Positions 1 through 43,865 of a stretch of DNA of 43,865 nt are shown piece after piece. Position numbers and translations under genes: made by a program. Below the pieces are notes generated by a model. The model did no database searches. It saw only the letters and a list, made by a program, of their open reading frames with translations, and was not told where the DNA came from. Every line of letters starts with the position of its first letter. Position 1 is the first letter of the stretch. Source of the DNA: Escherichia phage vB_EcolP_P433.1; sequence record MN384978.1, one strand, 5' to 3'.

Positions 1-885
1 TTACTTAGTTAATTCTTCTACTGCCTCAGAGATTAAAGGCCATGCCTCGTGTCCTTCACCGTAACCCAGTTTAACCAGTTCGCGGCGTGCCTTGTTAACT
101 GCTGTTTTCTTCGTTGCCTCTTCAGCGCTCAAACCCAAGCGGGCGTAGAAGCAAGAAGATTTGAACTGCGGAAGCATAGGCGCGGCTGCCTTCTTGCTTT
201 CGCGTGCACTGGTTAGCGCGGCGATGCGGTCATTAGCTGCCTGTAATTGCTCAGTAAGTGCCTTAATCTGTGCCAGTAGGCCAGCCATAGCGGCGTGCTC
301 AGTGTTAGCCGTGTTATCAAGTGGGGCGGCTTTTGGCGCTTCAGGCTTGCTTTCCTCTTCCCAAGGTGCTGATTCGTCGTTGTCCGGCTCGCTCACGGGT
401 GGCACTGCCTGCGGCTCTTGCGTTTCCTGTGATTCTGCGGCATCAGCCGCGTTCTCCTGCGGTTTTACTGTCTCTGCCTTAGATTGTACCATCTCGGCCT
501 TCGGCTCTTTCTTAGGCTCAATCAGGACGTTTACGGCGTTAGTATCCAGCTTGCCACCTGCGGCGAGTTCTGCGGCCTTCTCCATGATAATATCCTCATC
601 AGCGAAAGGAACAAGCGCCAACATTACACGCATCGCCACGCCTTTGAAGCGGTCATCACCCTCAAAGACACGCGCTACGCTCATCAGCTTGTAACATTGT
701 GCCTTCTTGATGCCGAATTCTGATTCTACATAAGCTAAAAAGTCTTTTTGACCTTCAAAGTCACCGCGTAGCTCATTCAGACAAGATCCAACCCGAAGAT
801 AAGAAGTGCCGATATTGTCTAAGTGTTGTTTGATCTCAGCGGTTGCAGCTTCACGAACAGAAACGAGGATGTTTTCAGTAGTCAT
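1..885 (-). CDS. hypothetical early protein (294 aa)
   Basis: Minus-strand ORF whose stop codon is window positions 1-3; ATG at 885 preceded by AGGTGA RBS; acidic and Pro/Glu-rich central region; no recognisable domain. Sits directly upstream of the RNA polymerase if the window is circular. Confidence 0.55.
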   Translation of the reverse strand: MTTENILVSVREAATAEIKQHLDNIGTSYLRVGSCLNELRGDFEGQKDFLAYVESEFGIKKAQCYKLMSVARVFEGDDRFKGVAMRVMLALVPFADEDIIMEKAAELAAGGKLDTNAVNVLIEPKKEPKAEMVQSKAETVKPQENAADAAESQETQEPQAVPPVSEPDNDESAPWEEESKPEAPKAAPLDNTANTEHAAMAGLLAQIKALTEQLQAANDRIAALTSARESKKAAAPMLPQFKSSCFYARLGLSAEEATKKTAVNKARRELVKLGYGEGHEAWPLISEAVEELTK

Positions 886-952
886 ATAGTCACCTATTGG
901 TTTATTGAGATAAAACTTAATCGGGCGCTAACAAGTAACGCCCTGTTAAGTC

Positions 953-975
953 TTCTCTTATAGTGTCAGATGAGT
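953..975 (-). promoter_or_regulatory. degenerate phage-promoter-like sequence (ACTCATCTGACACTATAAGAGAA)
   Basis: Keeps the GACACTATA core but has A at +1 and TCT at -12 to -10; probably weak or non-functional. Confidence 0.2.
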
Positions 976-1078
976 AGCTTGTATGTAGTTCCTAGCACTT
1001 CCTCACGAATCTGGGCAAATCGCAAGGAACACTTCAGGGTTACACCATCGGAAAAGATGAAGTTATATTGCTTTTCCA

Positions 1079-1414
1079 TCACTCTTCTTCCTCTTCTTCG
1101 TCTTCATACCAAACCACATCACTGTCATTTGGTACATCATTATAAAGCGCCTCATAAATGCGAGCCTGTAGGATCTTGGTTACATCCTTGGTGTCAGGGA
1201 TCAAGCCGGCATCATCGAATTCAATATCAATCCCGTCGGCCGCCATCACAGTAAAGATTTCATGATAATAGTGCGGTACGTTGTCATCTACAACCTCATG
1301 CAGCGCATCAGAATAATCATCATCTTCACGGATATGATCATACTGAATGCGCTCGTTGAACGCTTCAACAGTTGCAGCCAAAAGGTTGTAGTAAGCGTTA
1401 GCATTGCGTTCCAT
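1079..1414 (-). CDS. ocr: Ocr-like DNA-mimic anti-restriction protein (T7 gene 0.3 homolog, 111 aa)
   Basis: Very acidic protein ending in a poly-Glu run; the segment [44 protein letters not shown] closely matches T7 Ocr as remembered ([45 protein letters not shown]); GAGGA RBS before the ATG at 1414. Confidence 0.8.
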   Translation of the reverse strand: [111 protein letters not shown]

Positions 1415-1458
1415 GATTTAATCCTCATTAGTCAGTTAGTTGGGTTGCATTTAACAGT

Positions 1459-1488
1459 AGGTTACTACCTTGACGCATGACTGTCAAC
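1459..1488 (-). promoter_or_regulatory. possible host sigma70 promoter (TTGACA-N18-TAACCT)
   Basis: -35 hexamer TTGACA (reverse complement of 1483-1488) and a weak -10 about 18 bp downstream, upstream of ocr. Confidence 0.3.
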
Positions 1489-1558
1489 ACCGTATCTAGT
1501 ATCGCCCGATAAAGGCTAGGCAACGTGTTTATAGCGTTCTGCCTCTCGCTTGATGCTT

Positions 1559-2218: not shown

Positions 2219-2359
2219 TAAGGAAAAGCAATAGATACAAGGCTAGGATAGGTTAGGCGGGCTAGGCTTCTGGTGTCCCTCCTACTGCATCTTATTACTA
2301 TTCTCTTTCTTTAGCGGTCTACCGACCGCGACCTATTCGCATCTTATAGCGTAGCTATG

Positions 2360-2650
2360 CAATCACTAAGATAAGGCACTAAGGCTTACTAAGGCACACT
2401 ACTAAGTCACTACTAAGGTAAGAACTAAGGCTTTAACTAAGGCAACCCACTAAGGTTAGCATAAGCTATCCCTCAGGTTTATACCAAGGATATACGAGCG
2501 CGGTGAGTGTAGCGTAACGTAGTGTAGCGAAACGAACAGATATCCCACCAACGTCCACCCTGTCAATACCTCATAAACGCCCTGAATGGCCTCAGGAGTG
2601 CACTAAGAGGCTTCACTAAGGCAATCACCTTGTCCATCACTAAGCCAACC
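2360..2650. repeat. array of at least 11 ACTAAG(G) heptamer repeats (CCTTAGT on the coding strand) in two clusters
   Basis: Copies read at about 2365, 2377, 2389, 2402, 2413, 2424, 2438, 2452, 2601, 2616 and 2640 in a non-coding region; resembles the CCTAAAG heptamer arrays next to T7 terminal repeats. Confidence 0.6.
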
Positions 2651-2844
2651 CTAGGCCTTCCTAGGCCGCCTACCGCGTTCCACCTTGCTAGTACATAGGA
2701 AAGCCTGGGCCTGTACCAGTTCACTAGTACACTCCCAAGGCCACCCTATGGGGGACATCCCGGCGAGGGCGAGGGCGAGACACCTCACACACGCCTATAT
2801 CAAAATTTTGACTTTGGTTAATCCTTGTACAACACTAAGGTTTC

Positions 2845-2940
2845 CTACACTTCAGTCTTAAGTGCACAAGCTATTGCTACAGGAAGAATACAGAAACCTA
2901 CACATACACCTAAGAGGAAACTAATCAATTCTACTAACAT
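2845..2940 (-). CDS. possible small hydrophobic peptide (31 aa, MLVELISFLLGVCVGFCILPVAIACALKTEV)
   Basis: ATG at 2940 preceded by AGGAGG at 5-nt spacing; single predicted transmembrane helix; starts 14 nt after the upstream small ORF. Confidence 0.3.
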   Translation of the reverse strand: MLVELISFLLGVCVGFCILPVAIACALKTEV

Positions 2941-2954
2941 GTTACCTCCTTTGA

Positions 2955-3110
2955 TTACACTAAGTCGAATCCCTTGGGTTGCTTCAGGTAAGCCTGTACA
3001 GTTCCACCAAGAACCTTCTGGCTAGCCAGTGCAGACTCTTCAGTGTCATGTATCTTCCTGAGTACCTTACGTTTGAATGGGCCGACTCCATAAGTATGAA
3101 TCCAAATCAT
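2955..3110 (-). CDS. possible small protein (51 aa, MIWIHTYGVGPFKRKVLRK...)
   Basis: ATG at 3110 preceded by AGGAGG at 4-nt spacing; just downstream of the last tailspike gene. Confidence 0.3.
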   Translation of the reverse strand: MIWIHTYGVGPFKRKVLRKIHDTEESALASQKVLGGTVQAYLKQPKGFDLV

Positions 3111-3134
3111 CAAACCTCCTTAGTACTACATCAA

Positions 3135-3152
3135 GGCAGACCGAAGCCTGCC
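3135..3152 (-). terminator. stem-loop GGCAGGC-UUCG-GUCUGCC 10 nt after the tailspike stop
   Basis: 7-bp stem with UUCG tetraloop on the minus-strand transcript; no strong U-tract, so terminator function is uncertain. Confidence 0.3.
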
Positions 3153-3161
3153 ATTTGTGTA

Positions 3162-4619
3162 TTAGTAAACCAACTTAACCCTGTACGCCACAGCCCTGTT
3201 ACCAGAAGTGCCGACACGAGAAATACGAAGTGTACCCTCAGGGTTTATCTTTGTGCTCACTGGCTCAGCCGCAGTACCATCGATTGATGCAATGGCAACA
3301 ATAGTTGCAGCAGCGAGTGCCTTGGTTCTCAAGCCTACATCGACAAACGTAAGACCATCAGGGATGATAGCAACACCTTCCTGTAAGTCAGGGTGGGTAG
3401 GGCTGTCAACACTTGTTAGCTTACACTGTGGCGTAGTCAGGGTTACGCCTACTACATGAGAGCAGCCACGCAAATGCAGTGAGCTATTCCCCATGTTGCT
3501 AATTAGCATCACGTTATTTGTACGAGTACCCAAGAAGTCACAGTCAGTCGCAGTGATACCCTCCACAGAATCGATAAGGAGATCACCCTGCTGGGCTGAG
3601 TCAATATCATTGAACTGGAATGTTACATTGGTCAGACGCATGTTCTTAGGTGCATTAGCCCCACGCTTAGTGACATACAAACCAAAGTAGCGGCTGTCAG
3701 AGATACAAGTACCATTGATACGCAGGTTGTCACAAGCGCCAACCACTTCGATGCACGCTTCACTGCCAGAGTGGTTTGAAGAGTAGTAACCGAAGTCAAT
3801 CTTCACATCTTTGGCATCCTCCAGATACAGCGCCTGTCCACCTGCAAGGTCACTCATGCAGGAGTTGAACCACGTCCAGCGAGTCCCTATGATCTCAATA
3901 GCCTTACGATTCTTGGCGCTGTTGCCACATGAGTAGACTAGCTCATTTGTGAACATCAAACCCTCTGTGACACTAGAAACACCTGCAGACACGTCTTCAC
4001 TTGCATGGATAGCAGTATAACAATCAGAGTACGTGTTGTTGAAGAAGTGAGAGTTGATCTGTCCACCACCAGAGAATACCGCATAGTTGCTTGCTGCAAA
4101 GCGGTTATTCTGGATAGTAAGCTCAGCTGATGATTTACCTTTCTCACAGAAGACGCACGCATCGTAGAATGCAAACGAGTTGTCGCGCACAGTGATTAGC
4201 GGGCCTTCGATACGGATTGCCATAGTGTTGTTGCTATCCTTTCCGCCACCTACGAAGTTCAGACCTTCGATAACAGTGAATGCCGCACGAGGTATCAGAG
4301 TGGAGCCATTGTGTGTCTTCAATGTTGCACCGTACTTACCATCACTATATAGCCGGATGGCAGATGTAATTATAAGGTCAGTTACAATGTATGGCGTGTC
4401 TTTAGGCGGAACATAGACACCAGCACCCATACCTCCTGCGCGATATGCTGCTTTGATAGCTGCACGGAACGCAGGTGTGTCATCGGTAACACCATCACCC
4501 TTTGCACCAAAATCGGTGACACTAATCTGCTCACTAAGCTTCTCAGGGAGCAGTCTCAGAATAGCTGCATCGTATAGCGCCTTGTATTTCACGAAGGCAG
4601 CACCTAGCTTTTGAATCAT
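3162..4619 (-). CDS. tailspike, probable depolymerase with pectate-lyase-like right-handed beta-helix (485 aa)
   Basis: N-terminal motif ISVTDFGAKGDGVTDDTPAFRAAIKAA typical of beta-helix glycanases; AGGAGGG RBS before the ATG at 4619; position at the genome right end as in SP6/K1-5-type phages. Confidence 0.75.
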   Translation of the reverse strand: MIQKLGAAFVKYKALYDAAILRLLPEKLSEQISVTDFGAKGDGVTDDTPAFRAAIKAAYRAGGMGAGVYVPPKDTPYIVTDLIITSAIRLYSDGKYGATLKTHNGSTLIPRAAFTVIEGLNFVGGGKDSNNTMAIRIEGPLITVRDNSFAFYDACVFCEKGKSSAELTIQNNRFAASNYAVFSGGGQINSHFFNNTYSDCYTAIHASEDVSAGVSSVTEGLMFTNELVYSCGNSAKNRKAIEIIGTRWTWFNSCMSDLAGGQALYLEDAKDVKIDFGYYSSNHSGSEACIEVVGACDNLRINGTCISDSRYFGLYVTKRGANAPKNMRLTNVTFQFNDIDSAQQGDLLIDSVEGITATDCDFLGTRTNNVMLISNMGNSSLHLRGCSHVVGVTLTTPQCKLTSVDSPTHPDLQEGVAIIPDGLTFVDVGLRTKALAAATIVAIASIDGTAAEPVSTKINPEGTLRISRVGTSGNRAVAYRVKLVY

Positions 4620-4703: not shown

Positions 4704-6758
4704 TTATAACCATTCAGGCACAATAACCTCTCCCATTGAGAAGTTTGCTGCCTCACCTTCTCTACTGCACAAACGATACTTCTTATCTACTACTTCCCGT
4801 GTGTCTGTAGAAACTATGTTGTAGCAGATGTTATTAGCTGCTCTATGAACATAAGAATTTACTACTGGCTTACTTCCATCACCTTTTGCACGCGTACCAT
4901 CAATGAAGCAAGATTCTACAAGTAACAGGCCAGCAACTAAGTTGTTGCCTGTATCCCAGTCCAATATAGTCTCATTAAACTCTACACGACCTTGTGCATA
5001 AGTGGTTCCACCAGAGTAGCCTGCAAATCGACGAACGATACCACCTTTATTCTTGATGTAACTACGAGTATTGAAAGTGACAAGGTTCTTGTATTCAATA
5101 TCCATATTACATTCAAAACCTATAATACAACTTGCATATTCGTTACGATAACCTATATAAGCATCAACCTTACAACCTTTAGAGTAAGCAGGTGTAAGTT
5201 TTACAATAGGAACTTCACGAGTTGTTGCATCATGATATGATAGCGCGTATTCATAGCGGGCATTCTTTCCATGGAATACACTCCCTGTGAAGTCTATCAG
5301 TGTAGGCATCACAAAGTCACGCAATATAGGTGACACACTAGTCTTGAAGTTATTCTTGTAAGATACAATATTCAAGGTAACAGCATCAGGCCAGTGGATC
5401 TCTGATTCCACTATAATCTTACGAGGAAGATGCAATGCGCGAGGTTGAACCGGATTACCAGATGATAACACATTATCAGAACGGCACAGAATAAGGTCAA
5501 CAATACCTGTCTTTCCTTCTGGTACTCGTATGCTACCACCTTTGACAATAATGTCACCTTTGTGCTCACCATAATCAGTACGAACACCAAAGGACATAAT
5601 GTTGGAGTTAATGATACGAGTCTGCTCATCGAAGGCACCAGTGCCAACTAAGACACCTTCTTTTACAGTAGAATTATCTACTAGAACTCCAGAGGAGCCG
5701 TAGTGTAAGTGAAAGCTAGGGACAACAGAGTCACGAAGTACCACATCACGGCAGTAGTTACCATCAGCGAAACGCCATCCAGAACCACATGTGCAACCTA
5801 AGAAGGAATGCTTCAATGTATATTCCATAAGGATGGAATAACGAGAGTTATTATCAGGCTGAGGCCCGCCACTCATATTAACATGCCAGTTGACACCATA
5901 TGTATCTCCGCTTGATAATATGCTACGATCAACAGGTACTGAAATGTTACTATCAACCACGCCGTACACATTTACCTTAGAGCGAGTAATGTTGAATGCC
6001 CACTTTGTAACTGCGCCTTTGAACTTAGGAAGCACAACAGTGATGTACGATGCAGGCAACTTATACAAGGTGCAAGTAACACCGCTATTATATGTGTTCT
6101 TGAATGTATAAGCCAGATTACCTGACTTAGTCATCAAGTTAACCTCACATTTCATTCTGGCATCATATCTACCATTAAGGTAGCGATAAAGATCAACCTC
6201 TTGGCTGGTGATCTTAACCAAACTATTATCCCAGCCATCAAGACTTTCTGACACATTAAGTTGATTACTTAACTCTGTCAAAGGGTAGTTAATTACAGTG
6301 AAAGACTTAGACACATCAGTTCGCTCATCTGCCAATGTAACATTGCCACCTGTTAGGTTAAATGTCAAATTACTCAAGTCCATGTCACCATATAGTGTCA
6401 CGTCCTTGTTGATATTAATCTCGGTAGGTACAGAAGCGTAAACCTTGATACCATAACCTCTCAGTTGAGAAAATACCGTATTTAGGCCATCTGCATCTTT
6501 GGTAGGTAAGAGGGTAAGAAGATCAACACCTTTGGATGTGTCAATAATTGAAGTCCACTTACCTTCACCAATACCTTCTGTGAAGGGACTTGAACCGGGA
6601 TTCACAGTATGAGGGTAATCACCAGACCATACATAAATGTCTCTATTAAACAGGAACATATCAGCCATGCCTTGTGCCACACCACCACCCTCAAAGGTGT
6701 TTAATGTTGGTACATTAAGACTGAGTACATTACGTCCTGCACGTGTTAATCCAGCCAT
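4704..6758 (-). CDS. tailspike / receptor-binding protein (about 684 aa)
   Basis: Large Ser/Thr/Asn/Gly-rich ORF; the track start at 6818 is TTG, so the start is placed at the ATG at 6758 with TAGGAG RBS; directly downstream of the phage promoter at 6838-6860. Confidence 0.7.
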   Translation of the reverse strand: MAGLTRAGRNVLSLNVPTLNTFEGGGVAQGMADMFLFNRDIYVWSGDYPHTVNPGSSPFTEGIGEGKWTSIIDTSKGVDLLTLLPTKDADGLNTVFSQLRGYGIKVYASVPTEININKDVTLYGDMDLSNLTFNLTGGNVTLADERTDVSKSFTVINYPLTELSNQLNVSESLDGWDNSLVKITSQEVDLYRYLNGRYDARMKCEVNLMTKSGNLAYTFKNTYNSGVTCTLYKLPASYITVVLPKFKGAVTKWAFNITRSKVNVYGVVDSNISVPVDRSILSSGDTYGVNWHVNMSGGPQPDNNSRYSILMEYTLKHSFLGCTCGSGWRFADGNYCRDVVLRDSVVPSFHLHYGSSGVLVDNSTVKEGVLVGTGAFDEQTRIINSNIMSFGVRTDYGEHKGDIIVKGGSIRVPEGKTGIVDLILCRSDNVLSSGNPVQPRALHLPRKIIVESEIHWPDAVTLNIVSYKNNFKTSVSPILRDFVMPTLIDFTGSVFHGKNARYEYALSYHDATTREVPIVKLTPAYSKGCKVDAYIGYRNEYASCIIGFECNMDIEYKNLVTFNTRSYIKNKGGIVRRFAGYSGGTTYAQGRVEFNETILDWDTGNNLVAGLLLVESCFIDGTRAKGDGSKPVVNSYVHRAANNICYNIVSTDTREVVDKKYRLCSREGEAANFSMGEVIVPEWL

Positions 6759-6837
6759 ATAATCTCCTATTACTTCCCAACCCTCACCATGAAGATTGGC
6801 TAGTAATAGGCCGCTCAAAAGAACGGCACTATCTTAT

Positions 6838-6860
6838 CCCTCCTATAGTGTCCAGTAAAT
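6838..6860 (-). promoter_or_regulatory. phage RNAP promoter ATTTACTGGACACTATAGGAGGG
   Basis: Read as reverse complement on the plus strand; 23-nt match to the SP6-type core GACACTATAG; upstream of the first tailspike gene. Confidence 0.75.
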
Positions 6861-6889
6861 TATAAGACACTGATACATAAAGCTATGTA

Positions 6890-7087
6890 TTAATTGTATC
6901 CGCGTTCTAGCGAAAGAATGTACAAACCTAATTTTGTAGCGTCAGGCTTACTGAAGCAGACCTTATCGTCCACCTCGTAAACTGCCGTCAGCGTCGGCTT
7001 CAGTGGCCTTACCTTTGGAGTCTCTGGTAACTCCGTCTGACACCCTGAAGTGATCAGCGAACCAATCAGCAGGGTTGTCGCTAGCAT
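6890..7087 (-). CDS. small lipoprotein, candidate o-spanin (65 aa from the internal ATG)
   Basis: MLATTLLIGSLITSGC is a signal peptide plus lipobox-like Cys, followed by a Pro-rich stretch (LPETPKVRPLKPT); GAGG RBS before the ATG at 7087; lies in a different frame overlapping ORF 6963-7184. Confidence 0.4.
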   Translation of the reverse strand: MLATTLLIGSLITSGCQTELPETPKVRPLKPTLTAVYEVDDKVCFSKPDATKLGLYILSLERGYN

Positions 7088-7176
7088 GATTCGCCTCACT
7101 CTGTGCCTCCTTCTCTTCCTTCTTCTTCTTAGCGGCAAGCAGCAGACCAATAAGGCCTGCCAATAACTCAAGCACC

Positions 7177-7326
7177 TTATTCACAAGTGATTACTTGGCA
7201 TACCACGTCAGTGACGGAACCTTCCGTACCTTCACCAAGGTCTACACCAAGACCTACAGAGACAAGTGCAATCACCAGTGCAATCAATGCACCTACCACC
7301 TTCTTAGACTTAAACAGCTTTTTCAT
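7177..7326 (-). CDS. small membrane protein (49 aa, MKKLFKSKKVVGALIALVIALVSVGLGVDL...), possible holin/antiholin or spanin N-terminal part
   Basis: Not in the ORF track; ATG at 7326 preceded by AGGGAG RBS; one clear transmembrane helix; immediately downstream of the endolysin gene. Confidence 0.4.
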   Translation of the reverse strand: MKKLFKSKKVVGALIALVIALVSVGLGVDLGEGTEGSVTDVVCQVITCE

Positions 7327-7434
7327 TGCATCTCCCTTTCCATTGAGCTAGCAAATCCGAGTAGTTCTGCCAATCCTCATAGTTACCTGCCTCGGCAGCT
7401 TGAGCAACCATGCGCTCGCACCATTCAATACATC

Positions 7435-7797: not shown

Positions 7798-7830
7798 TGC
7801 CCGTCTAATTACTAACGAGAGATTATATTA

Positions 7831-8118: not shown

Positions 8119-8134
8119 ATCTATTCTCCTCTTA

Positions 8135-34504: not shown

Positions 34505-37051
34505 TCAGTGTGTTTCTTTCCAGCTTGCACCTATCTTATACTCGCCTGCCATCGGGCAACGCATCTTCAGATACTGCCCTGCCCAAGTCATGGCGTCGGC
34601 AATGATATGCCCTGCACGGTGATAACGCCGCTGGCAATGAAGTACACCAGCAGTAGCATCAACACTAACGAGATTTGCAGCAGACCACATACGTCCCTCA
34701 GAATCCACATGAACACGTTTCTCCTCTGCATCGAACACTGCTTTCACAGCGGCCTTCTCTGTTTCAAAACCCTCTAAGGTGAAAGGCAGGTCGTAGTTAA
34801 GATACAAGACCTCTTCTTCAGGAACCTCCATCTGGATTTCATCATGCACGTTAGCTACACCACAAGGGTTTCCCATACTATCTAAGGCCACACCTTCCTT
34901 GCGCATAACTGCAAATGCCTTGACTAATGCGTATTTCATACACAAAGAACCTGTCATCTGGAGTAATACGTTAAGCATAGTGTGCTCTTTAAGTTCACCA
35001 CCAGACATACGGATGCGACCCCAATGCCCATCAGGTGCTTGTAGGTAGCCAAACTTGTTACCTTGTGCAATAACATTCTCGCGAAGACGTGCAAGGGATG
35101 GTAGTTCAATCTCAAATCTTGCCACAACTTCCTTCATTTCTTCCTCAGTAACACCACACACTGCTGCAAGGTTTGCTATACCAGAACCATAGAGGAAAGC
35201 ATATATAAATGTTTTCGCCATATCACGCTTAGGAAGCCCAGCCTTCATCTGGTTATGCGTATGTATATCACCATGCAGTACAATATCTTGGTATTCAGGG
35301 TCATTCATGAAGTGAGACAGCACACGTAGTTCAAGACCTGCACCATCACAACCTAGGATTAGCTTACCTTTACCTGCTATGAATAAATCACGTAAAGGAT
35401 ACAAGCCACGGGCAGGAATATTAACCACGTTACGATGACGCATACGGAACGTAGAAGTGCCAATACTAATAGCAACAGCTGGAACACGCCACTCTCCATC
35501 ATCCTTATCTGACGTAGGCCAGTGTCCATACCTTTCGTAGTATTGCTGCGCATTGACTCCTAGCTCCTTGTTAAATGCTACAGGTACAAGGCCACGACAC
35601 TTTCGTACACCAGCCTGCGAGGGCCACGTTCCTTTCTCGTTGAAGGCTTCAACGTCACCACGGTTGAGTATCTGACCACGACGGGATACGAGTATGTACC
35701 ATGCAGCGATACCCAAGCACCAATCAGGGACTGTTTTACCTTCACGTGCGGCTCTTTCTTGCCATAAAGTAAGGGACTTCTCATTTATCTTACCACTCCA
35801 AGGCTTAGGTAGGACACCATTTTCATCAAGGTATGCTTGCTCTGTGTCGTTGAACTCCACACCTTTCCATCCATAGTCATAGAGCACTTGCTTAACGGTG
35901 TCACGGTTTCCCAAGGGAATCTCTTCAAACGTAACGGGACTGTAAGCGCCAACCCACTTGATGCTTGGCGTGTCATTACGGTTTCCTCTAAGGTGAGGGA
36001 AATCTTTCTTGACAGAAGCACTCCAATCTCCAGACTTAGTTGTGACAGACCATACAGTCTTCCTATCTCCACGGCGCTCCGCATGTAGAAAGTGTGAGGG
36101 GTCGAGTACAGTTGGGATATTATTGTTTCTTCCATACTCATTTGCTTTTTGGCAGGTTTCATTCTTTTCTTCCGGTTTAAAAGGTTTAGACTTGATACGC
36201 ATAGGCATGTGCGGACGGAACGCTGCGACTGTCTCATCAATCTTAGCGTCCAGTTCTTCGCATCGCGCTAATGCCTTGTCGATATCCAGACGGAAGCCAC
36301 GCTCGGCCTGACGGCTCATCTCCAGCGCTACAATGGACTCCATGTGGAAGGCTGTCTCAATGCCTAGGCCAGTACGTTTATTCACGCCACGGCGTTTGTG
36401 CTCCGTCCATTCCCCATTAAATAGCCAGAGGAATAGGTCACGACCAATCGCCACGTCCTCACGTACGCGATGCACCATGTGGTCGGTCAGTTTAGACCAA
36501 TCTTCGTTCTCCGGCTTATAGCGGCCTATACGGATGCCGTGCGCCTCAATTGAGTGAGGGGCAACGTTACCCATACCTTTGGCATAAGCCTGAGGAGGGA
36601 GGCGTCTATCGGGGTTTAACAGGCGGCTCATGACCAGCGTATCCATGACGCGTACCGGACACAGGTCAGCACGGAGTCTGCCCTTGCCGCGCTTCTCGGT
36701 ATAGTTAAAGCCTTTCCAGATATCAGGGAATGCTTTCTCAAAGAGAAGCCCGTCATACCCTAGGAAGTTCTGTGACACGATAGCTTCACAGTGCTTCAGG
36801 AAGTTAACGCCGTCAACTAAGTCACCATCTTGATGCCCTTCCCACTCCTTCAGGCGTTCTCTTGCTTCAGGGTCACGCATCTCATATGGGTCAAAGAAGA
36901 GGAATTCCTCAGTGGTGAGCAAGTCCATGCAGCAAATGATGTGCACATCTTCGCGGTGTCCATATCGGATAGCATCAAGAAGACCCTTAGCCTCCGCATC
37001 CATTACTAGGATGCGGCCTTCTGCTTCCTTCTTCCAATCAATAATCTTCAT
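34505..37051 (-). CDS. DNA polymerase, family A with 3'-5' exonuclease domain (848 aa)
   Basis: Exo motif VMDAEAKGL; polymerase motif A GCDGAGLELRVL, motif B KTFIYAFLYGSG, motif C VHDEIQMEV, all close to the T7 gp5 equivalents. Confidence 0.9.
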   Translation of the reverse strand: MKIIDWKKEAEGRILVMDAEAKGLLDAIRYGHREDVHIICCMDLLTTEEFLFFDPYEMRDPEARERLKEWEGHQDGDLVDGVNFLKHCEAIVSQNFLGYDGLLFEKAFPDIWKGFNYTEKRGKGRLRADLCPVRVMDTLVMSRLLNPDRRLPPQAYAKGMGNVAPHSIEAHGIRIGRYKPENEDWSKLTDHMVHRVREDVAIGRDLFLWLFNGEWTEHKRRGVNKRTGLGIETAFHMESIVALEMSRQAERGFRLDIDKALARCEELDAKIDETVAAFRPHMPMRIKSKPFKPEEKNETCQKANEYGRNNNIPTVLDPSHFLHAERRGDRKTVWSVTTKSGDWSASVKKDFPHLRGNRNDTPSIKWVGAYSPVTFEEIPLGNRDTVKQVLYDYGWKGVEFNDTEQAYLDENGVLPKPWSGKINEKSLTLWQERAAREGKTVPDWCLGIAAWYILVSRRGQILNRGDVEAFNEKGTWPSQAGVRKCRGLVPVAFNKELGVNAQQYYERYGHWPTSDKDDGEWRVPAVAISIGTSTFRMRHRNVVNIPARGLYPLRDLFIAGKGKLILGCDGAGLELRVLSHFMNDPEYQDIVLHGDIHTHNQMKAGLPKRDMAKTFIYAFLYGSGIANLAAVCGVTEEEMKEVVARFEIELPSLARLRENVIAQGNKFGYLQAPDGHWGRIRMSGGELKEHTMLNVLLQMTGSLCMKYALVKAFAVMRKEGVALDSMGNPCGVANVHDEIQMEVPEEEVLYLNYDLPFTLEGFETEKAAVKAVFDAEEKRVHVDSEGRMWSAANLVSVDATAGVLHCQRRYHRAGHIIADAMTWAGQYLKMRCPMAGEYKIGASWKETH

Positions 37052-37190
37052 ACATTAACTCCGTTTCAATTTGGTAATCAGGGATTTCACGATTATCTCG
37101 CGGGTCAATGTAATGAAATTCTGTGTTAACTTCCCGCGATTCAATTTCATCACGTAGTTTAATGAGGTCTTGCATAGTAAATTTAGTCAT
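37038..37190 (-). CDS. possible small protein (48 aa, MTKFTMQDLIKLRDEIESREV...) overlapping the DNA polymerase start
   Basis: Not in the ORF track; ATG at 37190 preceded by GGAGGT RBS; overlaps the polymerase start by 14 nt. Confidence 0.35.
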   Translation of the reverse strand: MTKFTMQDLIKLRDEIESREVNTEFHYIDPRDNREIPDYQIETELMYEDY

Positions 37191-37221
37191 TTGATACCTC
37201 CAATCAATATGATGAAAGGCT

Positions 37222-37237
37222 GTCTCACGTGTGAGAC
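37222..37237. repeat. inverted repeat GTCTCAC-GT-GTGAGAC (18-bp perfect palindrome 37221-37238)
   Basis: Read directly; starts about 10 nt after the stop of the 68-aa gene, preceded by GTCAAGG and followed by GCCTTTCAT. Confidence 0.6.
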
Positions 37238-37247
37238 AACCCTTGAC

Positions 37248-37454
37248 TTATCGACTGCGTGTTACAGTTAATTTCTGGCCCATGTATTTACCTTGGTGTG
37301 GCTCCCAAGTTGCCTCCTTGATAACCTGTTCACGCGTCAGGCTATTCTTCTTTGCTTCAGCCATAGTTAACTGTGCAAACAGGAAGGCTTGGTTGGTAAT
37401 TTGCGCTTGCAGGTCTTCGTGACCATCAAACATCTTAAGGCTGTGTTTAGACAT
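37248..37454 (-). CDS. hypothetical protein (68 aa)
   Basis: ATG start at 37454 overlapping the end of the upstream ORF; no motif support. Confidence 0.4.
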   Translation of the reverse strand: MSKHSLKMFDGHEDLQAQITNQAFLFAQLTMAEAKKNSLTREQVIKEATWEPHQGKYMGQKLTVTRSR

Positions 37455-37701
37455 AAGAGATTGCTACCTCTACTTTACTACCTTCCCAATGACCGTGACC
37501 ACCATCATTGCTTAGTGTAGTGCCTACACCCCAGCCAATACCATTATCGTTCACATAAATAGTTCGACCTTCTTGATAAGATACAACAAAGACCATGCCT
37601 TTAGCGTTAAAACTTACAATACGCATACGGCCTTTAAATGTGCCACGACGTAACTGCTTCTGAGCACGCTTGATACAGCGTTTGATTGCACGTTGTTTCA
37701 T
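37447..37701 (-). CDS. hypothetical basic protein (84 aa)
   Basis: AAGGAG RBS before the ATG at 37701; Arg/Lys-rich N-terminus. Confidence 0.45.
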   Translation of the reverse strand: MKQRAIKRCIKRAQKQLRRGTFKGRMRIVSFNAKGMVFVVSYQEGRTIYVNDNGIGWGVGTTLSNDGGHGHWEGSKVEVAISYV

Positions 37702-37711
37702 GATTAACTCC

Positions 37712-38377
37712 TTAAATATTCACGTAGGTTTCTTCAGTAACGATAGGGCAATAGACTAGGTGAGCTTCATTGACAATGAAGCCAAGTAAACCCTGCTTCT
37801 TGATAATGTGATTAACTATAGCTGCAAAGTTCTTATTAGCTACATTACGAGGCGCACCCTGTTCTGTGATTGCATGGTCAATATCCATGATTCGCACAGG
37901 CACATTCGGATGCATCATAGCTTCGCCAATCTTCACCATAGCTTGCCCTGTGGATTTACCTAATGCACGAGTATTAAACTGTGTAACACCTAATGCAGTG
38001 CCACATAGCTTAATCATTTCACTTTGAGTCTTACCAGTGACTACATTGCGTCGCTCTTTCTTGAGTGTGGTGCGTGTACTACTCATAGGGTTATTGGAAG
38101 AGTTAAATACTTTCAACATCTGACTAGTGCAACGCGCACACACATGAGATTCGTTGACACTGTGTGTACAGGTGCATTGATGTGTTGGGTCTTCCACCTT
38201 CTCAAGGTATTTATGGACACAGGATTTAATGTAACCCTCTTCTACTTGGCTTTGTTGGTAACGAATATAGTATAAGTCCTTTGTTTTACTAATGACTACA
38301 CCTATCTCACGTTTGTGGTTGGAATATTTGTTTATGTTACGAACTTTGTCACCTACATTCAATACTAATTTATACAT
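37712..38377 (-). CDS. hypothetical protein with Cys/His zinc-ribbon-like motif (about 221 aa)
   Basis: HQCTCTHSVNESHVCARC cluster; start placed at ATG 38377 with GGAG RBS (track start is TTG). Confidence 0.5.
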   Translation of the reverse strand: MYKLVLNVGDKVRNINKYSNHKREIGVVISKTKDLYYIRYQQSQVEEGYIKSCVHKYLEKVEDPTHQCTCTHSVNESHVCARCTSQMLKVFNSSNNPMSSTRTTLKKERRNVVTGKTQSEMIKLCGTALGVTQFNTRALGKSTGQAMVKIGEAMMHPNVPVRIMDIDHAITEQGAPRNVANKNFAAIVNHIIKKQGLLGFIVNEAHLVYCPIVTEETYVNI

Positions 38378-38416
38378 AATCAATCTCCAGTTATTTAATG
38401 TACTTAATAAGAGCCT

Positions 38417-38432
38417 GTCTCACGTGTGAGAC
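38417..38432. repeat. inverted repeat GTCTCAC-GT-GTGAGAC with extended arms
   Basis: Read directly; about 20 nt after the primase-helicase stop; the transcript could form a stem of about 11 bp. Confidence 0.6.
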
Positions 38433-38453
38433 AAGCCCTGATAAATACACTAA

Positions 38454-40442
38454 TCAGAACTCACTTTCTTCATCGAAGCCGGTCTCTTCTATAGTGTCCG
38501 GTAAATCCGGTACTTCTTGTTGCCTTGCTTCCCCTGTATCAAATGACTTAGTACGGGCTTGTGGTTCCATTAAACGTCCGGTTTGAATGTCACCCTTAAG
38601 CATGACCTTGGTTCCAGTGTAGATACCTTGGTCGCGGTCTTTGACACATGAGATGTACGTGGTAGTCCTTTCATCAAGCGTTTCAGCTCTTGTATTACGC
38701 TCAATCCCCAAGGCGTAAGATGCCCAGAATCCGATAGCACCTGAGCCTCGGAAGTCAGAAAGGATAACTTCGCCACCTTCTTCGTGCTGGACTCGGTTTC
38801 CCGCAGGGCGAGTAAGGTGCGAGACAAGGAATATAGTAACTGGGTGTCTGTCTTTGATAGTACCAATCCGCTTGACGCATTCATCAAGTGCACCAACCTT
38901 CCCACCAAAAGCACGCTCATCTAATTTAATCCCCGTTAAGTTATCAATGATGATATTAGAAATACCCATAGCCTCAAACTCAAGGCAAGTCTGCTCTACC
39001 TTCTCCATTGAGTAGTCACCTTCTAGGTCAGCTACGAAGAGCTTCCCTGTATCAGCGACATAGTCAATGGCAGCATTAGCTTCTTCCTCAGTATAGTCGA
39101 ACACCTCGCGGTATCCATCTTCTTTCGGGTCGTTGGTTGGCGGTAGTTCAATACGCTTATCAATCCACTTGCCGATAAAAGCACGAGACACTTTGACCAT
39201 CGGGTCTTCTGTAGAAATAATGCCTACGGATTCACCGTGTTCTTCGATGAGGTGCTTAACCACTTCACGGAGGAACTCAGTCTTACCTACACCAGAGCCT
39301 GCGCCTACAATGATAAGCTGGTTCTTACGGATACCTAGCGTTACTTTGTTCAGCTTAGGCCAAGGCCATGACAGCCCTTGCTCTGGTCGTGCGGCCTTAA
39401 GTTTATCCCTTTGAGATGCAATAGATTTAATCTGGCTACCAAAGACTTCATCAGACGACTTGGCATTAAACCACGCATCTACAAATTCTTTAGCCTTGCC
39501 AGCCATCAATGCCTTATTGGCATCTTTGCACCCAGAAGGGTACTCAAGAATATAGGATTTGCCGGGAAAGAGGCGAGCCGCTTGTTGGTTCTGCTTCTGC
39601 CCTACTTCATCCCCATCGAAGCCCCAAATAATCTTCTTGAATTGGGCGATGTGTTCACGGTTCTGCACAATCTCTTCAAGGCAAGATTCACCCTTATTAA
39701 CAGACCATACGTGGTAGGGCTGGCCTTCCCACTTAGTGCCTTTGGCAGAATCAAGGAGCATCTGTTGTGCTGCTAGTGCATCAAGCTCTCCGCCTACAAT
39801 AAGCAAGCAATCCTTCCGTCTTCCCTTGTCTAACACGTGAGACAAAGTATTCATACCGAAAAGATCTTGCATACCAAAGAGCTTACCTAGGTGACCAAAC
39901 TTAAAGTCTTTAGGTAAGGTACGGCACTTAGCGCCTACTAGCTCACCTCTCTCGAAGCGTGGATAGTAATGCCGTGAGACTCTACCCTCTTCATCGTGTC
40001 CGACACGTACATCATACAATGCGCAAATGTCGCCGCGAATGTGTCGGGAAACAAGATTCTTACGCTTAAGCGTGAGGAACCATTCAACATCAAGTTTCCA
40101 CTCTGCTTCTTGGTCTGCCCTTTCTTGCTCATTCATGACCTCCCAACGGTCTTTCATACGCATACCACCAAGTGCGATGGCTCGCAGCTTAGGGTCGCTT
40201 ATCTTCCCTTCCCTCTCCATCTCTTTGAATTGAGAAGGTGTGTATTTTATGTTGCCAGTAATAGGCAACTCGGTGATCTCGATACCGCCGTCTGGCTTGT
40301 GGTAGTATGGCTTGCCATTATCATGGAAGTGACCACGGTTACAATAGCCAGCACCATCATCAAATATCATGAGATGGTTGCCGGATTTATCGTGTCCATT
40401 CTTCTGGCAAGCAGGGCACGGGATGTTATTAATAATAGCCAT
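38454..40442 (-). CDS. DNA primase-helicase, T7 gp4-like (662 aa)
   Basis: N-terminal zinc ribbon CPACQ...YCNRGHF; helicase Walker A GAGSGVGKTEF; acidic C-terminal tail ending in Phe (...TGFDEESEF) as in T7 gp4. Confidence 0.9.
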   Translation of the reverse strand: MAIINNIPCPACQKNGHDKSGNHLMIFDDGAGYCNRGHFHDNGKPYYHKPDGGIEITELPITGNIKYTPSQFKEMEREGKISDPKLRAIALGGMRMKDRWEVMNEQERADQEAEWKLDVEWFLTLKRKNLVSRHIRGDICALYDVRVGHDEEGRVSRHYYPRFERGELVGAKCRTLPKDFKFGHLGKLFGMQDLFGMNTLSHVLDKGRRKDCLLIVGGELDALAAQQMLLDSAKGTKWEGQPYHVWSVNKGESCLEEIVQNREHIAQFKKIIWGFDGDEVGQKQNQQAARLFPGKSYILEYPSGCKDANKALMAGKAKEFVDAWFNAKSSDEVFGSQIKSIASQRDKLKAARPEQGLSWPWPKLNKVTLGIRKNQLIIVGAGSGVGKTEFLREVVKHLIEEHGESVGIISTEDPMVKVSRAFIGKWIDKRIELPPTNDPKEDGYREVFDYTEEEANAAIDYVADTGKLFVADLEGDYSMEKVEQTCLEFEAMGISNIIIDNLTGIKLDERAFGGKVGALDECVKRIGTIKDRHPVTIFLVSHLTRPAGNRVQHEEGGEVILSDFRGSGAIGFWASYALGIERNTRAETLDERTTTYISCVKDRDQGIYTGTKVMLKGDIQTGRLMEPQARTKSFDTGEARQQEVPDLPDTIEETGFDEESEF
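38484..38506 (-). promoter_or_regulatory. phage RNAP promoter ATTTACCGGACACTATAGAAGAG inside the 3' end of the primase-helicase gene
   Basis: CCG sub-class at -12 to -10; lies within the last codons of the helicase ORF. Confidence 0.6.
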
Positions 40443-40660
40443 TAGTTCACCTTAATAGTTCTGGGTTGGTACGAGTCAGCTTTTCTACGCTTAGAGATAA
40501 ACTGCTTTGCATCACTTTCGGTGCAGAAGATAGCCTCTGTATCAGTATATCCAATAGGCATCATACATGTGACCCATATTAAGCCTAATACTTTACGTTG
40601 CACTATGTAACACTCTTGCCCGTGACTATTTAAACAGGTCTTGATTCTGTATTTAGCCAT
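40442..40660 (-). CDS. hypothetical protein (72 aa)
   Basis: ATG at 40660; its stop overlaps the primase-helicase start (TAATG). Confidence 0.45.
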   Translation of the reverse strand: MAKYRIKTCLNSHGQECYIVQRKVLGLIWVTCMMPIGYTDTEAIFCTESDAKQFISKRRKADSYQPRTIKVN

Positions 40661-40663
40661 AAC

Positions 40664-40792
40664 TTAGAACTCCCACGCTGCGCGTTTAGATGCACGGTCA
40701 CGGACAGGTTTATTCAGCTTCTTGCCTTTCTTCTGCCCTTCTTCCATGTCAAAACGGTTAGCTTTACGGGTCATCTTCTCAAAGTTACGCAT
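40664..40792 (-). CDS. gp1.1-like small basic protein (42 aa, MRNFEKMTRKANRF...)
   Basis: Not in the ORF track; GGAGA RBS before the ATG at 40792; the N-terminus MRNFEKMT and the length match T7 gene 1.1 product as remembered. Confidence 0.55.
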   Translation of the reverse strand: MRNFEKMTRKANRFDMEEGQKKGKKLNKPVRDRASKRAAWEF

Positions 40793-40817
40793 GGTTAAAT
40801 CTCCAAAGTGAGTTAGT

Positions 40818-40840
40818 CTTATCTATACTGTCCGGTAAAT
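40818..40840 (-). promoter_or_regulatory. phage RNAP promoter variant ATTTACCGGACAGTATAGATAAG
   Basis: G instead of C at -5 and a divergent initiation region; preceded 5 bp upstream by the palindrome at 40846-40861. Confidence 0.55.
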
Positions 40841-40845
40841 ACGAA

Positions 40846-40861
40846 GTCTCACATGTGAGAC
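40846..40861. repeat. inverted repeat GTCTCAC-AT-GTGAGAC
   Basis: Read directly; abuts the upstream edge of the promoter at 40818-40840. Confidence 0.6.
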
Positions 40862-41004
40862 AACCTAGGTCTGCCCTTCCTCTAAGTAGTAATAATAGGA
40901 AGGAAGAAGGTAATAGGTATTCCTAGGTAAACCTATATAACCTTTAATACCTATTATTTCCTTTTATATCCTTATCTTCCCTCCTCTTTCCCATCTCCGA
41001 TGGT

Positions 41005-41027
41005 TTCTCCTATAGTGTCCGGTAAAT
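41005..41027 (-). promoter_or_regulatory. phage RNAP promoter ATTTACCGGACACTATAGGAGAA
   Basis: First phage promoter downstream of the polymerase gene; CCG sub-class. Confidence 0.7.
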
Positions 41028-41031
41028 ATGA

Positions 41032-41047
41032 GTCTCACATGTGAGAC
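41032..41047. repeat. inverted repeat GTCTCAC-AT-GTGAGAC
   Basis: Read directly; about 75 nt after the polymerase stop and 4 bp upstream of the promoter at 41005-41027. Confidence 0.6.
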
Positions 41048-41119
41048 ACTTTATGTTAATGAAATGTTACAGGTAGTGGGTAAAGAAAAGGCCACTCCCG
41101 AAGGAATGGCCTATCAATA

Positions 41120-43802
41120 TTATGCAAAGCAATAGTCAGAAACTAAGATCTCTTCAAGGTTAAACTCCCCTTGCTCCGGCACTTGGATACCAGTATCCAC
41201 TAACCAGCGCTCTTCGTGCTCATCTAACAGGCTTTGCAGGGCATTACGTCCTTGGTACATTTTCACCATTTCTGCCCTTAAGCTATCCCGCAGGTCTGCG
41301 GTGCGGCCTGCATGAGTGCCAAAAGAGTCATGAATAACTGCAATGGATGTTATACCTTTATCCACGAGGTCACATACAGTCAGGATAAGGTGGCTAGCAT
41401 CATGACCATGAACAAAATTAGGAGCCGCTGCACCCATCATCGCCGTTTCATCAACTACGTCTGTTTCAATCTGGAGACTCATCTTGATTTCACCCATCAA
41501 GCAAGTTGATACGCGAAGCATATCGGTTGCCATTATCTTTTGTTGCAAGATGAAGCCAGTAGGCAAGGTGTATTCTAACCCTTCATTTCTTTTAGCTGCG
41601 AATCGTGCTAGTTGGCGAATCATTCTCATCGCCACTATAGGTGCTTTAACAACCTCAGAGATTGAAGGCCAGATTAAAGCCGTCATATAATTATAGGCCG
41701 CACCAGTAGTTAAGTAGTCTTTGCGGTCATTATCAAAAGGGTGCACAGGATTCGCCGTCCGCCCTTCTGCAATAGCTCTTTGCGCCTCTTTTTCTTCCAA
41801 ATCAACGATATAATCAATCACAGACTCACGGCAGGTTAAGCGGGTGGAACCATAAGGCAAGGTCATTACGGGCTTTTTGGTTAAGCCACGAGTGATACCT
41901 ATCATATCCCATGCGCTAGCCATGCTACGCAGTTCTGCTCCTGTAAGTGTCACGCTTCCAGAGGTGAAAGTCTCTGCATCATCTGCATTCATGTAAGCGT
42001 AATTCTTCTGGATAACCACTTGCGCCACCGCCCCATAAATATCTTGCGGTGAGTCTGACGGCTTAAGGTTTACCGCCTTAGCGCCTACTTCATCACGTAG
42101 CATCGCACTATAATGCTGAATACCAGAACAACTACCGTCTTGGTGTACTGGTAAGTGCGTCATGAATTGGTCTTGTGTACCTTCATCCAAAGCATCAAGG
42201 TAACGAGCATACTCAAAGCACCACGCAAGGAATCCATAAGGAGAATCAGCATTTACCCATTGAGTAAAAGTCAGCGGGTCGGCTGCAATATCGCGGCACA
42301 TATCTTGAAATTCGCCATCCAGCACATTAGCGGTGCGCACGTCAAAAGTTTTCTTATCCCAACCCCAGTTATTCGCCCCGTTCACCAAAAACCACTTAAG
42401 CGCCTCAGCGCTGTTTATAGTCTGCCCTTCGGTAAACCGTAGTAGCGCCTTGCCTAAGTCATTTGATTGCGGCGAGAGTGTGCTAGATTGCGCGTATACA
42501 CGGCTGCGGCTGTCCAGTGCATATACGAAGTAAATAGCGTTGAAGTGGCTGTATTTACGGGCCTGCCCGACCATGCGAACGGTTGCCGCCGATTTACTGC
42601 CGCGCTTAGTCTCTGCGGTGTACAGCTTGGTGCATTCACCTTTCCAGTTGATAAATGCGTGCCATTGTTCTGGGGTTAGCATTTCTTTTAGTTCACGACC
42701 GCGCAGGTGTTGGAACTCAAGAGGAACAGGATTAGCGGGCTTGTTCTCCCGGTCGATGAGTGGTTTAAAGGAGGGCACACCATAACCAAGATCGAGGCGG
42801 ATAACATCTTCAACAACCTGCAACACTTCCTTATTAACCTGCCACTTGGTCGCCTGCAAAGCGTTAACAGCCTTGTAAACCGCTGGCATTTGCTTTTTGG
42901 TTAGCTTGCGGACGTGCTCGCGGTTGCCTTTAACCAGACGGATACGGCTTGCCACTTTCTCAGTGTGAAAACCTCCATTAAAAGGGGACACCCAAGGGCG
43001 CGGAGGGATAACGCAAGGTGCATAGGCTGGACTAAGCTGCGCTACGTGCTCTTTGAAGGCCGTTATCCACTCCCCAACGTGTTCACTAGTCTGTAAGTAG
43101 TAAACGCCATGTTTGCCGCCGTTAGTGCGCAAGGTGCGGAGGAAAACAGGCTGCCCGTTGAAGAATACACTATTTTCCAAGATTTCTAGCAAGGTCATGC
43201 CTATTTGCAGCAAGGTATCCTTAGGCCATGCCTCCCAGCGGGAGAAATCAGCGTCACGGTCAGATACAGACTTCTCAGCCACAACTGCTACGTTGTGCGC
43301 ATGGCGATAGGATTTAGTCTTGCTTGCCTTAAGTGACTTCTTAACCTTCTCGAAGTATTTGGCGGCGTGACCTTCCAGCTTGCTAAATCGCACTTGGTCT
43401 TCAATGCGGTCAGCTACATTCATGGCTATGGCTTGCAAGGTTACATCTGTGTTCAACATATCCATGACAATCTTCATCGTGATATAGGCTGCCACTTCAT
43501 TTTCTACGCAGTTAATGAAAGCTAATGCACGAGGTGCACGGCCTCTTTTACCTTCATACTCTTCCTTGTATGCCTGAATACCTTCAGCCATTGGCGCGAT
43601 TAACTCGGATAATAAGCGGCGATTCCAAGCCGTATCCGATTCGTTACCGGATGCAATTTGGCGCTGTTGGTCTGCTTCAAAGCGACGAATACCGCCGTTA
43701 AACATTTCTTCTTCAAGCTGAAGCTGGATAGCGTGTAGGTCTAATACCGCCGTTAAACATTTCTTCTTCAAGCTGAAGCTGGATAGCGTGTAGGTCTTGC
43801 AT
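41120..43802 (-). CDS. single-subunit DNA-dependent RNA polymerase, SP6-type; 5' end disrupted by a 55-bp tandem duplication
   Basis: Near-identity over long stretches to SP6 RNA polymerase as remembered (e.g. [49 protein letters not shown]-terminus ...DYCFA). The RBS-preceded ATG at 43802 encodes [20 protein letters not shown] and then frameshifts; the intact frame 41120-43771 begins only at a TTG. Confidence 0.85.
43688..43797. repeat. perfect direct tandem duplication, 2 x 55 bp (43688-43742 and 43743-43797)
   Basis: Both units read AATACCGCCGTTAAACATTTCTTCTTCAAGCTGAAGCTGGATAGCGTGTAGGTCT; the bases flanking each unit differ, so the repeat is exactly 55 bp. Confidence 0.9.
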
Positions 43803-43865
43803 CTTGTTTACTCCTAGTGAAAGAAAACTTAATAGGTGACACCTAAGAAGATGCCACCGATAAGG

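Follow-up and report, generated by a model that had tools for sequence, protein, structure and literature searches.

Escherichia phage vB_EcolP_P433.1: a probable rotated assembly of a K1-5-like genome with a 55-bp overlap retained close to its opening point

The window

The stretch of DNA analysed here (43,865 nt of record MN384978.1, referred to below as the window) is best described, from its homology with related genomes, as a complete circular permutation of a single-unit K1-5/K1E-like podophage genome, opened just before the RNA polymerase gene. The permutation is a property of the record and not of the virion DNA, and the real genome should be linear, with its predicted ends lying inside the window. 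Very probably the record is a complete, rotated, single-unit assembly that still carries the scar of an overlap of k = 55, seen as a tandem duplication within the 5' end of the polymerase gene. The genome is that of a lytic podophage of the Autographiviridae, subfamily Molineuxvirinae, from the genus Vectrevirus or close to it, and the strand given in the record is opposite to the genes: the minus strand carries every long ORF for which there is a homologue. GC skew is negative throughout the window, as expected with coding on one strand, and it is of no help in locating the ends.

Gene order and closest relatives

The preliminary description had read the coding strand as early genes, then the wrap, then the polymerase, which is the order found: once the window ends are joined, the polymerase gene follows the homologues of K1-5 genes 1-4 and 6. 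It had also proposed a comparison of gene order with SP6-like reference genomes. The entire window proves to be collinear with K1-5 (AY370674.1; Vectrevirus K15) in 16 blocks with a single wrap, so that K1-5 1-3237 corresponds to window 2778-1, K1-5 3238-39380 to window 43865-6745 and K1-5 44099-44370 to window 2831-2556. The aligned segments are 78-94% identical to K1-5; the internal virion protein genes align only in part, and the tail-spike module not at all. The tail-spike modules are unrelated (39.4-43.8 kb in K1-5, about 2831-6745 in the window), and K1-5 gene 5 has no counterpart in the window. The tail spike of the window is 485 aa long, and neither it nor the gene 6 product gave a match in look-ups of the exact protein. 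The K1-5 record starts at the left physical end and includes both 234-bp repeats, whereas the window holds a single copy and starts 2,780 nt inside that map. The length of 43.9 kb, taken earlier to be right for an SP6-like genome, falls within the 43.3-46.1 kb of the relatives' records.

K1E (AM084415.1) and the window have in common a large-terminase gene interrupted by the same intron, of group I and with an HNH gene (40A/40.5/40B; 97.2% identity). K1E departs from the window in its tail spikes, in the central part of the terminal repeat and in some of its early genes. Among GenBank records, Citrobacter phage vB_CroP_CrRp3 (MG775042.2 / NC_047920.1) matches best overall, covering 77% of the window's 25-kb late half at 84.2% identity. 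This is far under species-level identity, and the window phage is therefore distinct from all the records in the phage collection of August 2025. In Logan contigs, the capsid matches are 94-97% identical. The vB_CroP_CrRp3 record is also permuted relative to K1-5. Permuted records are commonplace in the group, with many GenBank relatives opened at various positions: the distance from the record start to the polymerase gene ranges between about 0.9 kb and about 20 kb, or the gene is on the opposite strand.

The early region at the left end of the genome (886..2540, minus strand) was delimited by its alignment to K1-5, in which K1-5 1-1231 corresponds to window 2778-1549 and K1-5 1541-2073 to window 1451-917. 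It consists of a non-coding stretch with short repeats of the CCTTAGT type and sigma-70-like promoters, followed by the homologues of K1-5 genes 1, 2, 3 and 4. Among them, the homologue of gene 3 is an ocr-like gene (1079-1414, minus strand; PHROG 2568, E=2e-52). A sigma-70 scan of the early region gave two good TTGACA-17-TACATT sites, and promoter-like sequences are located at 2136-2108 and 1587-1559; the number of sigma-70-like sites in this region is not above the shuffled expectation and no claim is drawn from it. Ten copies of the promoter of the phage polymerase (TTACTGGACACTATAGAAG) span 6840..41025 on the minus strand (repeat families D1-D3), and the ten sites of this type compare with 0.02 expected; without exception they share this strand and come after the polymerase gene, and none was found in the early region.

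The window ends and the opening point

The first three bases of the window, TTA, are the complement of a TAA stop and close a minus-strand ORF of 294 aa (1..885) in the ORF list, as had been observed before. This ORF is the last early gene before the polymerase, a homologue of K1-5 gene 6 (PHROG 4571, E=7e-130). The K1-5 gene occupies 2353..3237 and encodes 294 aa as well, and the nucleotide identity with K1-5 2342-3237 is 88.8%. Across the wrap, the polymerase starts with the ATG at 43802..43800 (minus strand), and exactly 63 nt remain upstream of it (43803..43865), where the earlier estimate had been about 60 bp. These 63 nt, with an AGGAG ribosome-binding site among them, separate gene 6 from the RNA polymerase gene. 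The spacer between genes 6 and 7 of K1-5 (3238-3300) is also of 63 nt, and 62 of the 63 bases are the same in K1-5 and in the IMG/VR contigs L003 and L006; in the relatives this spacer comes directly after the gene 6 stop.

The two ends of the window thus meet at a junction that is already present in other genomes. In 14 or more GenBank records of related phages, bases 1 and 43865 map to neighbouring positions, and the join neither lacks nor repeats any sequence: 11408/11409 in phage 6948, 4040/4041 in K1E, 3274/3275 in EEc2, and likewise in EEc4, Sem1, vB_EcoP_B, 6949 and seven Vectrevirus records of the series OZ0357xx/OZ0358xx. Besides, the exact 31-mer over the join from 43865 to 1 is present in four IMG/VR contigs, and the alignments continue through it. 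As an exact pattern, the first 54 bases of the window had no match in IMG/VR, JGI metagenomes or GTDB genomes. A prophage or bacterial flanks were considered and ruled out, given that the window ends run into each other in the relatives; tRNAs are absent.

The absence of a terminal repeat common to both ends holds for direct and inverted repeats alike. No prefix of 5-1999 nt equals the suffix of the same length, and BLAST of the first 1 kb against the last 1 kb of the window gave chance matches only, of at most 19 nt.

The earlier proposal of a circularised assembly opened at an arbitrary point was right in its first half, in view of the contiguity of the ends in relatives and the collinearity with K1-5, and needs correction in its second. 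The record was not opened arbitrarily, since the opening coincides exactly with the end of a CDS and lies 68 nt from a 55-bp duplication. A random opening would coincide with a CDS end in about 0.25% of cases, and would come as near as 123 nt to the duplication in about 0.6%.

The 55-bp duplication and the RNA polymerase gene

The duplication, which the preliminary description had passed over, is an exact tandem of 2 x 55 bp (43688-43742 / 43743-43797; TRF period 55, 2.0 copies, score 220, 100% match; repeat family D6), placed within the 5' end of the polymerase gene, which it frameshifts. At the boundary between the copies, GTAGGTCT is followed by AATACCGC (...GCGTGTAGGTCT followed by AATACCGCCG...), and this boundary, searched as an exact DNA pattern, had no match in IMG/VR, JGI metagenomes or GTDB genomes. 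K1-5 and four IMG/VR contigs (L003-L006) have the 55-bp unit only once, and against L004-L006 the alignment is interrupted where the two copies meet. The polymerase gene of K1E is also free of the duplication and aligns to the polymerase region of the window in two pieces. Related to this, the full-length GenBank matches all align in 2-3 pieces, as happens with an insertion in the query, although only the piece counts are considered here. The 43,865 nt of the window equal one unit of 43,810 plus 55. Replication slippage was rejected as the origin of the duplication because no microhomology was found at its borders.

The gene affected is that of the single-subunit RNA polymerase, homologue of K1-5 gp7 (41120..43802, minus strand; PHROG 414, E=2e-287), which is interrupted as written. 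The frame from the authentic ATG ends after 29 codons, and 20 native codons precede the truncation. The long polymerase ORF (883 aa) opens only at TTG 43771 and retains native residues 3-875. When one repeat copy is deleted, a polymerase of 875 aa is obtained, which is the length of K1-5 gp7 and has a matching N-terminus. The apparent disruption of the polymerase is almost certainly a curation error.

The duplication looks like a k-mer overlap between the ends of the circular contig first assembled, left untrimmed. The final default k of SPAdes is 55; the agreement between this value and the length of the repeat could be a coincidence. A comparable case is the assembly of phage 132, where a SPAdes contig with 55-bp overlapping ends was trimmed before being re-opened (PMC8483715). 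In both cases an exact repeat of the final-k length (55 bp) marks the cut of a circular path. The difference is that in phage 132 one copy was trimmed and the molecule then re-opened, whereas in the window the copy was apparently left untrimmed before rotation and so became an internal tandem duplication.

The same rotated circular assembly could instead carry the 55 bp as a real mutation, with low-level polymerase produced by re-initiation at Met15 or from TTG 43771, and this is judged unlikely. The arrangement of the gene offers some ground for it: the TGA that terminates the short upstream ORF lies 8 nt ahead of an in-frame ATG (native Met15), and the 883-aa ORF preserves nearly all the native residues, so that re-initiation at Met15 is conceivable from the sequence and the duplicated gene would not necessarily be dead. 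However, no Shine-Dalgarno sequence precedes TTG 43771, and the polymerase is required for all ten phage promoters. The single copy in K1-5 and the four IMG/VR relatives, the splitting of the GenBank matches (again in terms of piece counts only) and the lack of the border microhomology that replication slippage would leave also count against a real mutation, and so do a repeat length equal to a default assembler k, a window of one unit plus 55 and an opening only 68 nt away. A more specific form of the proposal is very unlikely. In it, the phage would depend for survival on termination-reinitiation at native Met15, which would yield less polymerase, and with a shortened N-terminus; if it were true, the duplication would naturally tune down the switch from early to middle transcription.

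That the window might be a slice of a longer molecule, either a long-read concatemer of several units or a contig with non-phage flanks, and have about the length of one unit by chance, is most improbable. In its favour, any flanks beyond the window are out of sight, and no source contig came up in IMG/VR, JGI metagenomes, GTDB genomes or the Logan/ENA gene index, but every base of the circle is present once, with neither gap nor overlap at the join in the relatives, plus exactly 55 extra, and an arbitrary cut would not be flush with a stop codon. No integrase was detected among the ORFs checked either. SP6-like phages are not known to carry an integrase.

The predicted terminal repeat and the virion ends

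The virion DNA of phages from the K1-5/SP6 group is linear, with fixed direct terminal repeats. In the window, a direct terminal repeat of 240 bp is predicted at 2541..2780 (minus strand) from homology to the repeats of reference genomes, and it is present as a single copy. The reference repeats measure 234 bp in K1-5, 288 bp in K1E, 285 bp in R4596 and 286 bp in mutPK1A2. Window 2541..2780 could be aligned with both ends of K1-5, K1E and R4596 and with the left end of mutPK1A2, both borders being conserved (TCTCGCCCTCGCC... and ...GTGGGMTA); the borders were set by homology, with 76-93% identity in pieces. The left border of the K1E repeat aligns to window 2780. The virion DNA is accordingly predicted to begin, on the left, with window position 2780 (TCTCGCCCTCGCCCTCGCC...) and to finish, on the right, with position 2541 (...GGTGGGATA).

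The single homologue of the repeat is flanked by right-end sequence on one side and by left-end sequence on the other. The right-end unique sequence leading into the repeat (2781..3121, minus strand) contains small ORFs equivalent to K1-5 genes 48/49, and was recognised because K1-5 44099-44151 and mutPK1A2 44156-44498 align unbroken into the repeat. The repeat search revealed no other long direct repeat in the window.

Headful packaging, by which the virion DNA itself would be circularly permuted and terminally redundant, is scarcely credible: a circular assembly map alone would also be given by headful phages, but the window holds a homologue of the fixed terminal repeat with its two borders conserved, the gene order is that of K1-5, the large terminase is of the T7/SP6 type and in the SP6-like phage UAB_Phi78 fixed repeats have been demonstrated experimentally with Bal31 (PMC4837284).

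Proposed assembly history

Taken together with the predicted repeat, a rotated assembly with a retained overlap may have arisen as follows. Short-read assembly would merge the two copies of the terminal repeat, and the genome would then close to a circle in which the collapsed repeat is the one at 2780..2541. A de Bruijn assembler with a final k of 55, for which SPAdes is a match, most likely emitted a contig with identical first and last 55 bases, and this contig would have been broken within the 5' end of the polymerase gene. In a later step it would have been rotated so as to open at the closest gene edge, where the first complete CDS (gene 6) has its low coordinate, with the overlap still untrimmed. 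Such a history would give rise to window ends that are contiguous in relatives without having a common repeat, to an opening flush with a stop codon and to a 55-bp duplication near the end of the window.

Implications

The permutation of the record and its probable scar are routine, ordinary artefacts of assembly. Nevertheless, they affect the way in which this genome is read. The virion DNA is predicted to be of about 44,050 bp, and the coordinates of the window are unfit as a physical map. Read at face value, the polymerase region would give a false pseudogene, or else an 883-aa product with the wrong start codon (TTG). The corrected circle of 43,810 bp is the better basis for gene calling, completeness scoring, clustering and the detection of terminal repeats.

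Adjacency of the record ends in related phages

Rotation of a circle requires that the window's final and initial bases lie side by side in related genomes. The end of the alignment of window 1-4700 was compared with the start of the alignment of window 40000-43865 in record coordinates, and both map to adjacent positions in at least 14 relatives: phage 6948 (11408/11409), DIJ06P1 (12155/12156), Sem1 (20493/20494), EEc2 (3274/3275), PDP21P3 (11489/11490), vB_EcoP_B (19028/19027, opposite strand), T147P1 (11304/11305), EEc4 (3297/3298), NIC06P3 (12568/12569), PDP21P6 (12018/12019), K1E (4040/4041), T147P9 (11717/11718), T205P4 (11404/11405) and phage 6949 (11473/11474). Besides, the 31-mer formed by the window's last 16 and first 15 bases is found exactly in four IMG/VR contigs, with alignments continuous across it.

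Whole-genome comparison with the reference phage K1-5 (AY370674.1) revealed collinearity with a single wrap: K1-5 1-3237 corresponds to window 2778-1, 3238-39380 to 43865-6745 and 44099-44370 to 2831-2556. Gene 6 of K1-5 terminates at 3237 and its polymerase gene begins at 3301, leaving a 63-nt spacer as in the window; 62 of these 63 bases are identical to the window's last 63. Adjacency in relatives and this gene order sustain the preliminary description of the record as a circular permutation of a complete genome, and many GenBank relatives are permuted likewise.

Direct reading of the first and last 600 bases gave a minus-strand ORF of 294 aa (1..885), whose TAA stop is the complement of bases 1-3 (TTA), and a polymerase ATG at 43802..43800, 63 nt from the window end. 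Position 1 thus lies in the stop codon of an early gene, as described, and the proposed distance of about 60 bp to the polymerase ATG was accurate. Every long ORF for which a homologue could be recognised is encoded on the minus strand. The absence of a terminal repeat shared by the window ends was also borne out: no prefix of 5-1999 nt equals an equally long suffix, direct or inverted, and sensitive BLAST between the first and last kilobases yielded no match longer than 19 nt, all attributable to chance. That the window is a slice of a longer molecule is argued against by a join without gap or overlap and a cut flush with the stop codon.

Predicted physical ends

Comparison of record ends showed exact direct terminal repeats in K1-5 (234 bp), K1E (AM084415.1; 288 bp), mutPK1A2 (286 bp) and R4596 (285 bp). 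In a multiple alignment, the left repeat border TCTCGCCCTCGCCCTCGCCGG is conserved and corresponds to window 2780, and the right border, ...TTGACAGGGTG...GTGGGCTA, is also conserved and corresponds to window 2541. Headful packaging, as a rival reading, is argued against by this conservation of fixed-end borders. The 240-bp homologue of the repeat is single-copy in the window, between right-end and left-end unique sequence; no other long direct repeat was detected in a search of the whole window. Exactly such a single internal copy is expected when an assembler merges both terminal repeats of a linear genome into one. In the SP6-like phage UAB_Phi78, fixed terminal repeats of 179 bp have been demonstrated experimentally by Bal31 mapping (PMC4837284). 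Judging from the single collapsed copy and, by analogy, from UAB_Phi78, the permutation is a property of the record and not of the virion DNA; the alignment supports true ends internal to the window, predicted at 2780 and 2541.

A non-coding stretch just inward of the predicted left terminal repeat (window 2230-2540, minus strand) is dense in short repeats of the CCTTAGT/CTTAGTG type, which Tandem Repeats Finder (TRF) reported at 2240-2534. Short repeat arrays adjoin the terminal repeats of T7-group genomes, and those of the window look alike.

Relatives and gene content

Megablast against 50,697 phage records found no identical record and matched many K1-5/K1E-like (Vectrevirus) phages of Escherichia, Citrobacter, Klebsiella and Salmonella. 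The best match was Citrobacter phage CrRp3 (84% identity over 77% of the window's late half); for the polymerase region, identity to many records is about 90%. Nearer than any GenBank record found are the phages of four sequencing runs (SRR33881050, SRR31323900, SRR33880926 and SRR33881017; Logan contigs L007-L010), which encode a capsid protein identical to that of the window and show 94-97% nucleotide identity in their aligned parts; the SRR33881050 contig (L007) measures 44,266 bp. Proteins with PHROG matches are the polymerase, an early protein of the ocr-like type, the two large-terminase halves, a tail-fibre adaptor, an endolysin and one tail spike. The counterpart of K1-5 gene 5 (2100-2288) is missing (window 895-917 versus K1-5 2073-2342), and the homologues of genes 4 and 6 are separated by only about 22 nt.

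The large-terminase gene is in two parts, N-terminal (405 aa, 9996..11213) and C-terminal (260 aa, 8569..9351), split by an insertion of 746 nt relative to K1-5 (9301-10046, minus strand). This insertion contains a group I intron (Rfam RF00028, 10078..9871; 63.6 bits, gathering score 50) together with an HNH homing-endonuclease ORF (9293..9826) extending 8 nt into the downstream exon. K1-5 lacks the element, whereas K1E carries it at 97% identity, annotated 40A/40.5/40B; it is also present in about 15 further records of Escherichia, Klebsiella, Salmonella and Lelliottia phages.

The tail-spike module, which spans 2831-6745 on the minus strand with ORFs of 704 aa (4704..6818) and 485 aa (3162..4619), shares no nucleotide homology with K1-5 gp46/gp47. 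It gave only weak PHROG matches to tail-spike/depolymerase families, with a weak tail-fibre match for the second putative spike, and its sequence probably reflects specificity for another host capsule or O-antigen.

Ten copies of the phage-polymerase promoter (TTACTGGACACTATAGAAG, 0-3 mismatches) are located between 6840 and 41025, all on the minus strand, versus 0.02 expected; an eleventh, more divergent, lies at about 40812-40842. The early region and the sequence upstream of the polymerase gene contain none. A 35-nt element (repeat family D4) centred on the perfect palindrome TGTCTCAC(G/A)TGTGAGACA has four apparently intergenic copies (16492-16526, 37212-37246, 38407-38441 and 40836-40870), which may form hairpins for RNA processing or termination.

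Duplication in the polymerase gene and proposed assembly history

Tandem Repeats Finder and a repeat finder detected a 55-bp sequence duplicated exactly in tandem (43688-43742 and 43743-43797) that starts five bases past the polymerase ATG, whereas K1-5 and the IMG/VR relatives have a single copy. The frame from the authentic ATG runs for 20 residues, shifts and stops nine codons later, and the long polymerase ORF does not open until a TTG within the upstream copy. Deletion of one copy restores an 875-aa protein with the length of K1-5 gp7 and a matching N-terminus. Since an in-frame ATG (native Met15) follows 8 nt after the premature TGA, a real duplication is conceivable, though improbable. 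Against it, the repeat is k-sized, the window length is one unit (43,810 bp) plus exactly 55, microhomology is missing at the borders and the relatives examined lack the duplication. The evidence supports an assembly scar, by which the polymerase gene only seems to be disrupted.

When SPAdes outputs a circular path, the two ends overlap by exactly the final k, and 55 is the default final k of SPAdes for short reads and of metaSPAdes. The window opens 68 nt away from the scar, precisely at the edge of the first complete CDS on that side; a random cut would fall this near the scar with a chance of about 0.6%, and flush with a CDS with about 0.25%. The opening point, originally regarded as arbitrary, is therefore not so. 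In one published phage announcement, a 55-bp end overlap was trimmed and the genome then re-opened (PMC8483715). In the simplest history that we infer here, the original contig break would have fallen within the polymerase gene, and a later step would have rotated the contig to the first gene boundary, leaving the overlap untrimmed.

The circular-permutation reading is thus supported in a refined form, with internal true ends predicted at 2780/2541, a non-arbitrary opening and a 55-bp assembly scar that makes the polymerase gene look broken. Permutation of this kind is ordinary and already well known, and the usefulness of the finding is in curation.
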